Shown here piece by piece: positions 40,665 through 45,107 of a DNA stretch of 64,000 nucleotides. The stretch is from contig CAWGLD010000004.1 in assembly GCA_963823335.1 (NCBI GenBank), positions 494,817-558,816 of the forward strand, read 5' to 3'. The notes beneath the pieces are model-generated. The model was not told the origin of the DNA. It did no database searches and saw only the letters and a list, made by a program, of their open reading frames with translations. The DNA comes from an uncultured delta proteobacterium. Its GTDB lineage: Bacteria > Desulfobacterota > Desulfobacteria > Desulfobacterales > B30-G6. Each line of letters opens with the position of its first letter. Within the stretch, counting starts at the first letter, position 1. The translations under genes were made by a program, and so were the position numbers.

Positions 40665-42444
40665 GAGACTGTCGAAAAAGGCATTTCGGCGAACCGGTTC
40701 ATCGCTCGACATTCTCGATTTCAATAGATCCATCTTTTTTACTTCAAGATGCTATCATATTTTACAGATTCAGCCTACTTATTTGGTCTGTACAGCCTAT
40801 GCATGCCCGTAATTAGCCACTTTCTCTATATTGTGTACCATGCAGTACAGCAACCACTGAATATTTACCTTTATCTTTCCCCTTAAGTTAAGCCTGTCCA
40901 TTCGTTTTTGGATGTGGATGTTTCCAAATACAGGTTCAACGATGGCAATTCTTCGCGGATAGATTTTACGACCTTTTTCAGATTCAATCTTCTTGATCAT
41001 TTCATGGGATATATTCTTGCCAGACGCATCCACATAGAATGTAAAATGTCGTTGTTTAGCATCTTCATACCTAAGACACTTAGCCCTGAGTCGACAGGAC
41101 CTACAATCTATCTCCCGAGAAATATATCTTTTTAAAAGTTTGCCCCTATGTAAACCAGGTTTCCCATTTCTCTTAAGCCGCTTACCATTTGGGCAAACAT
41201 AGTGGTCCTGCTTGCGGTCATGCTTAAAATCTGCAAATGTAAACTTTTTAGAGTTTGACTGATTGTTTATCCGACTTGAGAACCTCTCATCTCGATTACG
41301 GAATTTGTTGTCTGGAATATAGGCATCTAATTTTTCATCACTGCATTTATTAATATTCGTTACGCTGTGATAACTTGCATCGGCTGTTAATATCTTATCT
41401 TCGAAATAGTCCTCTGGCTTGCCGATGCTTTGAAGTTATTCTTTGGCACCATCAATCACAGGAGGCAGATTTTCATGATCAAGCCCTTTCCCTATTGCCT
41501 CGCCATTAACAATTACCTGGTGCTTGGAATCGACTAACGCCTGACAGTTATATCCCTGAACAGTTCCGTGTGAGGTATGCATTTTAACAGAATCGTTGTC
41601 AGTTACATTGCTGTGAAGTTCTTTTCCATAGGCACCAATTATTTTGTCGTTTTCTGAAAACCATTGCTCAATCTTTTCAGCCTGCCGCTTAAGTCTCTCA
41701 ATTTGTTTGTCACGATTTGCAGCCATCTGAGTCTTGGCCCTATCGTCTGATTGGTCTTTTTCAAGATGATCTCGAACGAACGACTTAATCTTATGTTCAA
41801 GCTTTTCTTTCTTTTTCTTCAAATCATCTATTTTCCCACTACATTCTTGGGATGCATTGGACGATAGCTTGCAGCCATCAATGGCAAAGAAGGTTCCGCC
41901 TAAAAGATTCTCTTGCTCGCATACTAAAAGAATATCGCTGAACAGAGGTTGAATTTGATCTTCCATAGAAGAAACGAATGAAGCAATGGTGCTGTGATCA
42001 GGACGTTGGTTGCATGACATCGCCATAAAAGTCACATTCTCACAACATGCTCGTTCGATTTGGCGTGATGATATCAACCCACGTGAATAAGCAAGCAAGA
42101 CAACTTTCAGTAGTATCTTAGGATTATAGGCACTGCGGCCGGTATCGTCGTTTTGATACCTCGTATCAAATACGGACATATCCATCCGCCGTTCCACAAG
42201 GGTGTGGATGGCGAACTCTAACGTCCCTGGCATCAATTGTTTTTGGAGGGAAACAGGTATCAATAAACTTTGAGAGTAGTCGTAGTGCTTATACTTTGCC
42301 ATGCCTAATTCCTGTATGTTTGGCCATTGTCATTTGCTCATTTACCTAAACAATGACTAGCATAACGGTAGGATATGTCAACGGTTTATAGAGATAATTA
42401 TACATCTTTTAAGGTTAGATAGGAGGATCTTTTTCGACAGTCTC
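40665..42444 (-). mobile_element. IS1182-family insertion sequence
   Basis: Perfect 16-bp TIR GAGACTGTCGAAAAAG / CTTTTTCGACAGTCTC with GGA on both flanks. Confidence 0.92.
40797..42302 (-). pseudogene. IS1182 transposase with one in-frame TAA at 41436-41438
   Basis: GRSAYNP, SSRQIE, PDHSTI, AIDG, GYN, then in the same frame ADASY, YVCPNGK, VEPVFGNI, HNI. Confidence 0.9.
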
Positions 42445-42535: not shown

Positions 42536-42883
42536 TCAAGCAATCTTAACATTCTCTGCCCCTTTAAACAGTTGAATAATTTCCCTTACATAGGCGCATT
42601 CACATTCGGCCCGACACTGTCTTAATTCCTTCTTGTTCAAACAGTATTCTGGGCACTCATCTGTCCCAGTTTTTGGCTCCGAAAAAATTGGTCCGTCATA
42701 AAGATCGACAAAAAGATCGGCGGATAAGGTGATAGTATTCTTACAACTGTGATTGAAGTATAATAGGCCAGCTTCCAGATTTTTAAAATTCACTTGATAA
42801 CCGACAATCATTATATCCTGGTCGGCAATAAAATCTCGGCGGGTTGACCATTTATGCCCGCAAACTTTACACTGTTTAAACAT
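42536..42883 (-). CDS. Cys-rich hypothetical (putative metal-binding) protein
   Basis: MFKQCKVCG..W..R..F, FNHSC, CPEYC..C...CEC. Start taken at ATG 42883. Confidence 0.7.
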   Translation of the reverse strand: MFKQCKVCGHKWSTRRDFIADQDIMIVGYQVNFKNLEAGLLYFNHSCKNTITLSADLFVDLYDGPIFSEPKTGTDECPEYCLNKKELRQCRAECECAYVREIIQLFKGAENVKIA

Positions 42884-42940
42884 GAAGGTGCTTTCGTAAT
42901 TTTTAATATGTCGTCTGAAAACCAAGTATCAGGACGGTGT

Positions 42941-43122
42941 TGATGAATGGAGACAAGTCCAACTATCCGATAATTGAAAAAAATGCAAGATACCATCTGG
43001 CTATGCCCACGGTACCACGGAGGGGTCTATAGATGCAAGATTTGGCCTGTTGTGATAATTTTCGCACACCGGTAAAATTTTAGGGGTCTGATATCTACCA
43101 TTTTGTTGGAGGTACCGGCAAT
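42941..43122. repeat. ~180-bp inter-cassette repeat, full copy B
   Basis: Conserved blocks AATGGAGA, GATACCAT.TGG, ATGCAAGATTTGGCC, TTGTGAT..TTTTCGCACACCGGT, TGATA, TTTTGT.GGAG. Confidence 0.92.
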
Positions 43123-43141
43123 CAAAGAAACCAGTCCAATA

Positions 43142-43672
43142 TTACTTGTTCAATAGTGACCACATTGAATTTGTCAGTTCGTGCTTCAGATGATCACCAG
43201 TACGGTAGTGATCATTTTTTGCCCAATCATCGCTTACTTGATGCATCCAAGTAATGGGTTTCGGAGGGACATCTTCCCATTCAATGGTTGGTGGATAAAA
43301 GAGATAGATATCCCAAGCGACATGACCATCCCAACCAACACTTGTCGCAATCTCCTTTCCCGATATTTGTTTAGGATCATAGAAATGTTGAATACGATCA
43401 TCATTTAACAACTTGATGGTCGGTAATGCAGCTTCTAATGAATCTTCAGGCAGCATATTAATCCAAACAATGGACCCGTTGATATCGGTCTTAGGAAAAC
43501 TCTCAAACACATTCTTATGCACCGCCCGGGCACCTTGGTCACGTCACAATGGGCAAGTGGGGGATAGAAGGGCAAGGAATCGTATTTTTCCCTTTCCTCT
43601 GTTGAAATGGTCTTTTAGATGGTCCAGCGAGCCCAACAGCTTGATATTGTCCTTTGTTTCGCCGGTTTTCAT
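43142..43672 (-). CDS. Thioredoxin-like selenoprotein, 176 aa, CxxU motif (UGA at 43544-43546)
   Basis: AGGAG RBS, ATG 43672, MKTGETKDNIKLLGSLDHLKDHFNRGKGKIRFLALLSPTCPL-TGA-RDQGARAVHKNV continuing in frame into ORF 43142-43522. Confidence 0.85.
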
Positions 43673-43704
43673 TTTCGAATCTCCTAACTAAGAGTCTGAA
43701 GTCG

Positions 43705-44202
43705 CTAAGCCATTTTGAAAGATTTTTTCCCGGTCAATTTATCCACCACCTGGCGGACATCAGCCAAACATCAGCGGCCTTTGGGATTCTTATTGGCACA
43801 ATCGCATCCATCGGCTTTTTTCTCGGCTGCAATTTCAGCCATTATCGTAGATCGGCCATTTTTCTGATAATCCTGTTCAATGTCCCTCCTGGTATGCTTA
43901 AAACAGTAGCAGACCAAATCATCCAAGTTAAATTCACTGGTTTTTAACGTATTTGATTTAGCGGTATCCCGCACCAGCTGGCCGTTTAATGATGCAACGT
44001 ATCCTGCCTTTATCAGGGCATGCTTCATATCTTCGAATGAAAGCAATTCCGGATCATAGGAAACAACAGCTTTTTTCTCGGCATTACTGGCGGTAGCCTC
44101 CTTTACCCCCTCAAGCCCTTCCAGGGCCTTTACCACTTTGGGCTCTCACCCCATTCAGGTCATACCTTGGATAGACAGTTCGATCTTCAGATCTTTAGAC
44201 AT
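43705..44202 (-). CDS. Triple-selenocysteine HMA (CopZ-like) + 2Fe-2S-binding fusion protein, 165 aa
   Basis: MSKDLKIELSIQGMT-TGA-MG-TGA-EPKVVKALEGLEGV..VCYCF..CDCANKNPKGR-TGA-CLADVRQVV..MA-TAG. UGAs at 44155-44157, 44146-44148 and 43771-43773. Confidence 0.85.
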
Positions 44203-44380
44203 ACATTTCCCACCTTTGTTTATTCGTCACAACAAATTTCCAGATCAATAGTTTCACTGCGTTCAAGATTGTCAAACGATTCCAGTGCTTTCATTGCCCA
44301 TTGTTCCCCGGGGCAACCAGATTCGGTGATTGCCACATTGAGAAATTCTACAAGCTCTTTAGCAAGAACCTGTTTTCTTA

Positions 44381-44680
44381 CTATTTTGAATGCATAATTT
44401 CTCTGACTGCATTCGAAAGTGAATCCATGTCCGGTATGTTGTCAAAGGCTATGCGTTCATTGATAATAATCGATGGAACTGAAGGCATTCGCTTACAGAT
44501 TGTACCGAGTTCAGCGTGCCTCATCACACCCTCTTTAGAACTGACATCGACCACCGTCCACTGGAGAACGCCCTTCTCAAATTCGGGGGCAATTTCTTCC
44601 AGTATTGCAAGCGCCAAATCGCACAACATGCACCCTTTCTTTTTTGCAACAATTTCTACAATTACGTTTTGCAAATCCAT
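44381..44680 (-). CDS. Small thioredoxin/glutaredoxin-like protein (CMLC)
   Basis: CxxC after the first strand and cis-Pro motif SVPSIIIN..FDNIPD. Confidence 0.75.
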   Translation of the reverse strand: MDLQNVIVEIVAKKKGCMLCDLALAILEEIAPEFEKGVLQWTVVDVSSKEGVMRHAELGTICKRMPSVPSIIINERIAFDNIPDMDSLSNAVREIMHSK

Positions 44681-44757
44681 GTACCAGAATCTCTATTACA
44701 CATTTTTCAATTTTAAAATTAATCCTTTTTTCCAATGGCCCTATGTAAGGTCGAGTG

Positions 44758-44784
44758 GTGATAAATGGAGAGTAGTCACGGTTT
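44758..44784. repeat. Left-end fragment of the inter-cassette repeat (copy C)
   Basis: GTGATAAATGGAGA, identical to the start of copy F (49201). Confidence 0.55.
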
Positions 44785-45107
44785 AACAGACCCGTAAAAA
44801 CCTGTGATTACATCACATCCCGCTCTAATAATTGCCACGATCGCCATTACAGATATCATTTTTCTTACAAATTTGCAAAAAAGGGAAAATCGTCGAAATG
44901 ATCCTCCCGCATGATAACATAGAAATACAACGTGAGTGACGATTGCGTGTAGTGGTGATGTGTTATGGTATCTGCAATTATCGTAAAATACCGATGAGTT
45001 GGAGATAGTACGAGTTTACGACCTTCAAAGCGATCTGTGATATAAAAAGTGGCAAAACTAAGGTAGCTCTGCCACTTTAATATATCCAACCTGTACAACT
45101 TAGATTA

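Follow-up and report, generated by a model that had tools for sequence, protein, structure and literature searches.

Several described systems each hold part of the architecture considered here. CopZ of Archaeoglobus fulgidus (2hu9; NF047645) carries a [2Fe-2S]-type Cys-rich domain and an HMA domain in one polypeptide and is reported, in a passage of PMC7830388 that cites the work, to reduce Cu(II) and then pass on the Cu(I). Passages of two surveys (PMC13188914, 2026; PMC9312934, 2022) catalogue both domain types as selenoprotein families, and the same passages give, as form 2 of the CopZ-family (2Fe-2S) selenoprotein, the Csac_0668 family with its CU motif. What does the present locus add? 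It lies on a stretch of 64,000 nucleotides from an uncultured delta proteobacterium (assembly GCA_963823335.1, contig CAWGLD010000004.1, positions 494,817 to 558,816 of the forward strand; the whole stretch is hereafter the window), where an HMA domain and a CopZ-type domain are joined in a single reading frame holding three TGA codons. From comparison with its homologs, this gene is almost certainly real and conserved in sediment sulfate-reducing bacteria, and its three TGA codons almost certainly stand for selenocysteine (Sec, U). The novelty is the fusion architecture and the three-Sec count; the domains themselves are known. The features of the gene, all on the minus strand, are as follows.

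43705..44202, minus strand: gene of the three-Sec fusion, 165 codons followed by TAG (43707..43705), with full-length homology to 41 other distinct genes
44155..44157, minus strand: UGA1, codon 16, predicted Sec at the first metal-binding position of GMT-U-x-x-U; TGA in 42/42 unique fusion genes
44146..44148, minus strand: UGA2, codon 19, predicted Sec at the second metal-binding position; TGA in 39/42 and TGC or TGT in 3/42 unique fusion genes
43771..43773, minus strand: UGA3, codon 144, predicted Sec in the motif NPKGR-U-C; TGA in 42/42 unique fusion genes and in 94/94 unique genes without an in-frame HMA motif
44113..44129, minus strand: hairpin 1, resembling a selenocysteine insertion sequence (SECIS), AGGCCCU-GGA-AGGGCUU, a 7-bp stem closed by a GGA loop, 16 nt past UGA2 and 25 nt past UGA1; -9.5 kcal/mol folded alone
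43741..43758, minus strand: SECIS-like hairpin 2, GUCCGCC-AGGU-GGUGGAU, a 7-bp stem closed by an AGGU loop, 12 nt past UGA3; -11.5 kcal/mol folded alone
43999..44178, minus strand: HMA domain, residues 9-68 (Pfam PF00403, 57.4 bits against a cut-off of 24.8; predicted local distance difference test score, pLDDT, 86-92; Foldseek)
43960..43998, minus strand: linker, roughly residues 69-81, predicted to be disordered (pLDDT below 50 at residues 74-88), with variable alignment columns
43744..43917, minus strand: predicted BFD-like / CopZ-NT-like [2Fe-2S] domain, residues 96-153, from NF047645, Fer2_BFD and the 2hu9 alignment, with invariant C98, C100, C133, C135, U144 and C145
44209..44217, minus strand: Shine-Dalgarno-like AAAGGTGGG, 6 nt 5' of ATG 44202, a putative ribosome-binding element

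The fusion resembles each of the known systems in part. Its VCYC...C...NPKGR-UC aligns with the VCYC...C...NPxGR-CC of A. fulgidus CopZ. Unlike that archaeal protein, it is bacterial (Desulfobacterota), has its domains in the reverse order, lacks the Zn-binding first half and has Sec in place of Cys at three ligand columns. NF041115, the 'UxxU_metal_bind' metal-binding (seleno)protein family, shares with it the HMA fold, the GMT-U-x-x-U loop, the ALEGLEGV peptide and, in locus L051, a GGCCCUGGAAGGGCU hairpin 16 nt past UGA2. Proteins of that family are single-domain and the member examined has a signal peptide, whereas the window fusion has none and adds a second Sec-bearing domain. The stand-alone GxUC (2Fe-2S) CopZ-family form 1 selenoprotein has the same GxUC motif as the fusion C-domain (KGR-U-C) and the same SECIS hairpin; the C-domain is 55-75% identical to 38 homologous C-domain sequences, 35 of them from genes without an in-frame HMA motif and 3 from fusions. 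Unlike the stand-alone genes, which encode 70-90 aa, the fusion C-domain has no start codon of its own and runs in frame from the HMA domain.

Other relatives lead toward mercury transport and toward Bfd. NF045683, a 'MerT/CopZ fusion-like heavy metal transport selenoprotein', and the proteins P0189, P0200 and P0222 likewise place a CopZ-NT-type domain and HMA in one mercury-transport-linked protein, and the NPQGS-CC-LxNV[RK]QVV motif of the latter three matches NPKGR-UC-LADVRQVV of the fusion. Unlike the fusion, these three are membrane proteins of 455-500 aa with a full CopZ-NT and Cys at all these columns. In each, the Zn and the 2Fe-2S halves of CopZ-NT are both combined with two HMA domains reading GMTCEGC and with a membrane segment like that of MerT ('SSACCW'), an arrangement not known to have been discussed; P0200 and P0222 exceed the NF047645 cut-off (103.9 and 106.8 bits). 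The window protein (P0001) scores 29.5 bits on NF045683, through its HMA part. MerP and NmerA are close in fold (1osd, TMt 0.93, rmsd 0.7 over 69 columns), and the fusion at locus L149 follows a merA without its own HMA; they differ in having Cys for Sec and no attached, predicted Fe-S domain, and a mer context is found at 1/12 of the fusion loci with large flanks. Bfd (4e6k_G, 6e6q; PF04324) provides the best structural matches of the C-domain model together with a Pfam E of 3e-4. Compared with Bfd, the fusion gains a Sec-Cys pair and its C-terminal helix is longer; its Pfam match lies below cut-off, and no link to bacterioferritin was seen.

Has the fusion been described before? Neither an HMA plus CopZ-NT fusion nor a three-Sec protein of this kind was found in selenoprotein literature including passages of PMC13188914, PMC9312934, PMC2398784, PMC1976440 and PMC12013277; the supplements of these surveys might list it, and table passages of PMC13188914 mark one family with 3 Sec. 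This agrees with the original prediction, made from the sequence letters alone, that a three-Sec fusion was not known to be described. That prediction mentioned single-Sec versions and understated what had been described, since the passages show both the UxxU HMA family NF041115, with 2 Sec, and the GxUC CopZ-family selenoprotein to be already catalogued. Its further claim of HMA and CopZ-type domains in the reverse order to A. fulgidus CopZ is borne out by Pfam, NCBIfam and the 2hu9 alignment alike. Of CopZ-NT, the [2Fe-2S] half is matched and the Zn-binding half is missing, and the Se ligation that the prediction assigned to the cluster is a possibility.

Inside the frame from ATG 44202 to TAG 43707..43705 the sole stops are three TGAs, at codons 16, 19 and 144, and translation confirms the frame as it was predicted. 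Read with genetic code table 11, it yields just a 121-aa open reading frame (ORF) starting at GTG, 44136..43771, between TGA 2 and TGA 3. The predicted product of 165 residues is cytoplasmic, without a signal peptide, and consists of two domains and a disordered linker. All three TGAs fall on Cys columns, as had been proposed: U16 and U19 correspond to the Cys residues of GMTCxxC and U144 to the first Cys of the 2hu9 GRCC. By our own arithmetic, the chance of three stops hitting three of eight conserved Cys columns in a 165-codon frame is about 56/735,130 = 8e-5. With the same three TGAs present in 39 of the 42 distinct homologs, chance or sequencing error is untenable. Contigs from sequencing runs that cover the TGA sites show no alternative letter (for example X4 record 21, 44007-44161, and short Logan contigs, each covering part of the gene).

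The genome of the window (G000; 4.37 Mb, 11 contigs) contains the machinery that was to be expected from the prediction. Matches to selB (373 bits), selA (610), selD (372) and tRNA-Sec (75.4) are all above curated cut-offs. TGA is an ordinary stop in this organism: of the 30 window ORFs that reach 250 aa or more, it terminates 8. The selD gene (contig C5, 144246-145172, minus strand) itself has one in-frame TGA and is therefore a Sec-type selenophosphate synthetase. A second, stand-alone GxUC-domain gene with 1 TGA is present in the same genome (contig C1, 1761472-1761669, minus strand); it is 52% identical to fusion residues 92-157 and lies about 12.5 kb from selB (C1, 1747105-1748997).

Homologs were collected from GTDB species genomes (the best 80 of 317 relatives) and JGI metagenomes (the best 80 of at least 527), which with the window make 161 sources (L041-L200 plus the window). 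An HMA domain and the C-domain lie in one frame in 48/161 sources, equal to 42 unique DNA cores. The codons at the three columns of these 42 unique fusions read TGA/TGA/TGA in 39 and TGA/TGY/TGA, giving UxxC, in 3 (L135, L137 and L048). Cys is found at column 16 or 144 in 0/42. In a further 101 loci (94 unique cores) the C-domain comes with no in-frame HMA pattern, and 94/94 have TGA at the GxUC column. This group includes stand-alone genes and a few variants: L141 with 'QDMTUVSC', L045 with a disrupted N-terminus, and L051 with a split form. The remaining 12 sources showed neither pattern and were left out of the codon counts (L144, L154, L163, L185, L074, L080, L097, L099, L104, L107, L111 and L112).

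The fusion proteins are 47-65% identical to the window protein. Invariant among them are G13, M14, T15, U16, U19, C98, C100, C133, C135, P140, G142, U144 and C145, and within the last 20 residues, past UGA3, V149, V152 and V153 do not vary. Conservation thus continues beyond each TGA in the family alignments, as a genuine read-through product was expected to show. Column 19 is the only one that alternates between Sec and Cys inside the fusion family (TGC or TGT in 3/42; L141 is also a Cys form). Column 144 is Cys in the distant homologs 2hu9 and P0189, P0200 and P0222 ('GSCCLxNV[RK]QVV'), and Cys at column 16 is the rule in the HMA domains aligned; the anticipated Cys/TGA alternation is accordingly seen within the family at column 19 and in more distant homologs at columns 16 and 144. 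Among 61 genomes of the same order, residues 1-165 match in full in G000 alone. The same 61 genomes give 29 further matches with in-frame TGA, each limited to residues ~73-163; the ones inspected are short stand-alone genes, 70-100 codons long, whose GxUC column holds TGA. Named fusion records come from metagenome-assembled genomes (MAGs) labeled Desulfobacterota or 'delta proteobacterium', and nearly the same DNA is present in metagenomes of marine and other sediments from several studies.

How do these genes appear in public protein databases? A word-indexed search returned 66 relatives, 52 of them 120-129 aa long. Eleven of the latter were fetched, and 11/11 stop at ...NP[KN]GR, just short of the third TGA column, while most start just past the second. 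The relatives of 161-182 aa have W at all three columns in 9/9 cases (GMTWxxW, GRWC). Three W-form proteins, P0073, P0085 and P0090, are encoded letter for letter by L129, L123 and L121, with TGA at every W; because of this exact match, we conclude that W in the database entries is TGA translated as Trp by the gene caller. A profile search of 1.84 billion representatives is dominated, among the 150 matches listed, by multi-HMA ATPases. The same 150 include 2 fusion stubs of 123 aa (P0105, which was read, and P0120, assigned by length and range), the 87-aa fragment P0197 and 3 CopZ-NT/MerT/HMA proteins. Public annotation calls the stubs 'hypothetical protein', 'CopZ' or 'cation transport ATPase'; one named NCBI entry, MBT8350466.1, is a 121-aa 'hypothetical protein'. 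No NCBIfam model spans the full fusion length.

Two hairpins had been predicted downstream of the UGAs, and both were found at the predicted spacings, hairpin 1 at 16 nt past UGA2 and hairpin 2 at 12 nt past UGA3; both are conserved, hairpin 2 with compensatory changes. For hairpin 2, 135 sequences (126 distinct) were aligned, with UGA3 in columns 7-9 and the helix formed by columns 22-28 and 33-39. Of the cells in this helix, 94.1% are paired, compared with 30-69% when the partner is slid. Compensatory double changes occur at three pairs: 24-37 (CG to UA, seven times), 25-36 (once) and 28-33 (CG to AU, twice). The 10 compensatory cells compare with 1.2 in shuffles, and 0/500 shuffles reach the observed value. 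The family loop is A/G-G-G-U. The stem coincides with the codons of the conserved peptide DVRQVVD, whose synonymous positions are nearly fixed. Short Logan contigs from three sediment metagenomes match just the ~50 nt of 43739-43791, which hold UGA3 and hairpin 2, with 3-5 differences and divergence on both sides; the SECIS core is therefore common, at the DNA level, to many different community genes. Rfam at E <= 10 returned chance-level matches and no SECIS family across 43000-44800.

Hairpin 1 was examined in 42 sequences, with UGA1 in columns 7-9 and UGA2 in columns 16-18. RNAalifold pairs columns 37-41 with 45-49 around a GGA loop, and this core of 5 bp is kept in at least 40/42. Pair 39-47 is CG in 22 sequences, UA in 17 and UG in 3, and is broken in none; at this pair the third position of an Ala codon changes together with a switch between Gly and Glu. 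L051, a member of NF041115 (110.3 bits), has the same GGGCCCUGGAAGGGCUU hairpin, also 16 nt past UGA2. For L048, which is of the UxxC type, RNAfold gives a different stem nearer the single UGA. Since UGA1 has no conserved hairpin of its own in the alignment, a single element probably acts on UGA16 and UGA19 alike. An extra hairpin over UGA2, GGGCU-GAG-AGCCC, was dropped as not conserved: by eye, several sequences have mismatches at G12-G24 and A13-C23.

The N-terminal domain is identified both by score and by fold. Its metal loop reads GMT-U-M-G-U, with a Sec codon at both ligand columns, and U16 and U19 stand opposite the Cys pair of GMTCxxC in solved HMA domains (ATP7B, CopA, MerP and others). 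The AlphaFold2 (AF2) full-length model, built with 34 family members in the alignment, has a mean pLDDT of 78 and two confident domains. Predicted secondary structure of the N-domain runs E5-12, H19-28, E33-39, E44-49, H56-65, E69-76. Foldseek with the full model returned HMA domains alone, with TMt 0.88 to 3dxs and 0.93 to MerP 1osd. A six-frame search with NF041115 scored the fusion HMA at 48.5 bits, lower than the HMA domain of the genome's own CopA (65.4).

The C-terminal domain matches NF047645, 'CopZ_Nterm_CC, putative iron-sulfur cluster-binding metallochaperone', over residues 79-149 with 56.3 bits and E = 3.9e-15. The match is confined to profile positions 70-137 of 138, which identifies it as the [2Fe-2S] subdomain without the Zn-binding half; a CPxCG-type (Zn-binding) N-terminal half of CopZ-NT is absent from the fusion sequence. 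The sole solved sequence relative of the C-domain is A. fulgidus CopZ-NT (PDB 2hu9). Allowing for an offset in residue number, C98, C100, C135 and U144-C145 align to its C75, C77, C109 and C118-C119, VCYC and NPKGR-UC facing VCYC and NPSGR-CC, so that the U144 column is the first Cys of the 'GRCC' pair. Modeled alone, the domain reaches a pLDDT of 85.5 and a predicted template modeling score (pTM) of 0.74, and AF2 predicts a helix at residues 146-160, past UGA3. VIA-align of this model to 48,161 chains ranks Pseudomonas aeruginosa Bfd first (4e6k_G, Z 5.4, rmsd 2.1, 53/57 residues) and second (6e6q_A, Z 5.0), modest scores with Z below 8. A modest Bfd match of the predicted model agrees with the sequence evidence for the C-domain.

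The genes on either side of the fusion, on the same strand, are the following.

43142..43672, minus strand: downstream neighbor, 176 aa, with one TGA at 43546..43544 in RFLALLSPTCPLU; 32 nt past the fusion stop, a probable operon partner
44381..44680, minus strand: upstream neighbor, a 99-aa thioredoxin-like protein with 'GCMLC' and a weak match to NF047660 (HUIPC-motif (seleno)protein family), 58.6 bits against a cut-off of 105

The downstream protein has no Pfam or NCBIfam match at E <= 0.1. It has 141 database relatives, and a Pfam domain is precomputed in 0 of the 120 listed. Its motif takes several forms among the relatives: W in code-4-style calls, where 'SPTWPGW' stands for SPT-U-PG-U (UxxU) in the loci, and CxxC in P0341 and P0330. 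In 18/37 unique fusion loci with at least 300 nt of flank, a gene of this SPTCPLU type follows the fusion in the same orientation at a distance of less than 1 kb; 13 of these genes are CxxU (including L121, L122, L124, L128, L137, L142, L149 and L151) and 5 are UxxU (L155, L156, L157, L043 and L044). Judged by its sequence, the SPTCPLU protein seems to represent a family of thioredoxin-motif selenoproteins for which no curated model exists. A homolog of the 99-aa upstream gene precedes the fusion in L134 (2198-2491) and reads N-U-I-L-C with a TGA; the window gene is therefore the Cys form of a family alternating between Sec and Cys. Between this gene and the fusion, a short minus-strand frame at 44220-44400 (...ESGCPGEQW...EICCDE*) ends 17 nt before the fusion ATG and shares its other part, in a different frame, with the end of the 99-aa gene. 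No ATG occurs in it, and from the first possible start, a GTG, 38 codons remain; it may be a small gene, a frameshifted tail or no gene at all.

The wider context was compared at 12 fusion loci with large flanks. At L149 (818-4798) the genes follow in a mer-like operon order: merR (149.6 bits, cut-off 150.85), merA, the three-Sec fusion, an SPTCPLU gene and a VTT/DedA membrane gene. This merA (TIGR02053, 527 bits, 467 aa) is without an N-terminal HMA domain. Elsewhere the fusion is found near an ArsE/MTH895-type thioredoxin (L152), ArsM-like fragments (L134), ArsR (L042), or MauE/DoxX, ArsR-rhodanese and DsbD_TM genes (L041). In L051 (1002-1560) the fusion is split: the gene of an exported NF041115 protein (110.3 bits, with a signal peptide and GMT-U-A-V-U) ends in a stop, and four codons later a stand-alone MNDLICYCF...KGK-U-C gene begins in the same frame. 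Taken with the mer locus and the CopZ-NT/MerT/HMA fusions, this split NF041115/GxUC pair points toward mercury, or a soft metal like it, and not specifically toward copper.

What might such a protein do? SelB and Sec-tRNA would read UGA16 and UGA19 by means of one shared hairpin, and UGA144 by means of a second hairpin that doubles as the DVRQVVD codons. Compared with a dithiolate, the selenolate pair of the HMA loop would form a tighter site for a soft metal, for instance Hg(II) or Cu(I) and perhaps others. In the C-domain, a [2Fe-2S] cluster would sit on Cys98, Cys100, Cys135 and one more ligand, which may be Sec144; otherwise Sec144 may be a reactive selenol beside the cluster. The cluster would act as a one-electron redox center, as in A. 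fulgidus CopZ. The downstream CxxU/UxxU thioredoxin-motif selenoprotein would keep the selenols reduced or join in the transfer, and together with the fusion may form a selenium-based module for handling or detoxifying soft metal(loid)s in anaerobic sediment bacteria. To our knowledge, Sec144 on the cluster, if true, would be the first natural Se-ligated 2Fe-2S center.

Taken as a whole, the locus is likely best explained as a three-Sec HMA plus [2Fe-2S] fusion with SECIS-like hairpins, in which soft-metal handling would be coupled to a redox domain. A fuller version of the same reading would combine an obligately Sec family (no Cys ortholog in 42 genes), one SECIS for two UGAs 9 nt apart, a diselenolate Hg(II)/Cu(I) site, Sec144 as a cluster ligand or as a catalytic selenol contacting the cluster, and a 4-5-Sec detoxification or trafficking cassette formed with the neighbor in marine-sediment sulfate reducers. 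That all of these parts hold together is doubtful, and we put the combination forward tentatively.

Several observations weigh against the fusion as we read it. No full-length Cys-form ortholog of the fusion was found among the 66 protein relatives, the 42 fusion genes and the 150 listed profile matches, and for that reason the comparison with Cys homologs at columns 16 and 144 draws on more distant relatives. Hairpin 1 is short, with 5 conserved bp, and is the weaker of the two elements; its covarying pair may reflect few evolutionary events, possibly one Gly/Glu split. A spacing of 25 nt from UGA1 to hairpin 1 exceeds the Escherichia coli optimum. Of the curated Sec and domain models, Pfam HMA is the one whose cut-off is passed. 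Profile scores fall short of their cut-offs for NF041115 (61.5 bits against 95), NF047645 (56.3 against 100), Fer2_BFD (PF04324; E = 3e-4, 21.5 bits against a gathering cut-off of 26) and NF045877 (23.6 bits against 190), the last being the Csac_0668 family in its 'CU' form, where the fusion has Sec first in the pair, UC. Foldseek of the C-domain model against the PDB gave no match at E <= 0.001, and the structural match to Bfd reaches a Z of only 5.4. The genomic context is heterogeneous, with merA at 1/12 large-flank loci and copA beside the fusion at 0/12, and there is no metal transporter in the window's own neighborhood or adjacent to the fusion in 12/12 large-flank loci.

This absence of an adjacent transporter (0/12) also favors the main rival, which accepts a real three-Sec gene and makes it a selenol/thiol redox relay with no metal cargo. 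The UxxU pair would be a diselenide/diselenol couple, electrons would pass through the [2Fe-2S] cluster and the vicinal Sec-Cys, much as in ferredoxin:thioredoxin reductase, and the flanking thioredoxin-motif proteins would be partners or substrates. Thioredoxin-type motifs do occur in both neighbors, CMLC upstream and CPLU downstream, and DsbD_TM, rhodanese, MauE/DoxX and ArsE-type thioredoxin genes lie near the fusion at other loci; bacterial selenoproteins, moreover, are mostly redox proteins according to passages of PMC1976440. What speaks for a metal cargo is the N-domain itself, which is HMA by score and fold and has its Sec exactly at the metal-ligand columns, together with the locus in a mer operon and the related CopZ-NT domains joined to MerT-like and HMA modules. 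We know of no HMA domain that acts as an oxidoreductase. We regard the redox relay as unlikely.

Might the three UGAs be read through in part? Bacterial Sec insertion competes with termination, losses would multiply over three UGAs, and hairpin 1 stands 25 nt from UGA1, so that at least one UGA (UGA144, for example) could act mainly as a stop, with a main product of residues 1-143 lacking the last helix, or with nothing made past residue 15. Protein-level conservation past each UGA argues otherwise, including the invariant V149, V152 and V153 and the predicted helix 146-160, as do the compensatory changes in hairpin 2 and the retention of three TGAs in 39/42 genes when a single-base change to TGY would remove the cost; predominant termination is very improbable. 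That the TGAs are not Sec at all, owing to a pseudogene, assembly errors or TGA read as Trp, is barely credible: the frame is broken under table 11 and nine full-length database proteins have W at the three columns, but those W entries are gene-caller translations of TGA (three matched to DNA), TGA terminates 8/30 long ORFs of the window, none of the solved HMAs aligned has Trp at both metal-ligand columns, the same three TGAs recur in 39/42 distinct genes at 47-65% protein identity, and covering contigs from other sequencing runs show no other letter at these sites.

The three-Sec fusion matters beyond this locus. Bacterial proteins with three Sec are rare, and at least 42 distinct genes belong to this family. 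Because the public entries found are 121-aa stubs or have Trp at the Sec codons, the fusion has been missed by selenoproteome counts and by metal-resistance annotation of sediment Desulfobacterota. The merA link at one locus and the unannotated CxxU/UxxU partner suggest a selenium-based route for handling mercury or other soft metals, and anaerobes of this kind dominate sediment mercury cycling. Is a single bacterial SECIS enough for two UGAs that lie 16 and 25 nt before it? How would a diselenolate HMA site alter the affinity for Hg or Cu and their transfer? Does Sec sit on or beside a 2Fe-2S cluster?

Farther along the minus strand, past the fusion and its downstream neighbor, a 129-aa Cys-rich ORF without a family match (42539-42925) adjoins an IS1182-family transposase fragment (41436-42302; 148 bits against a cut-off of 270), which lies about 1.4 kb downstream of the cassette.

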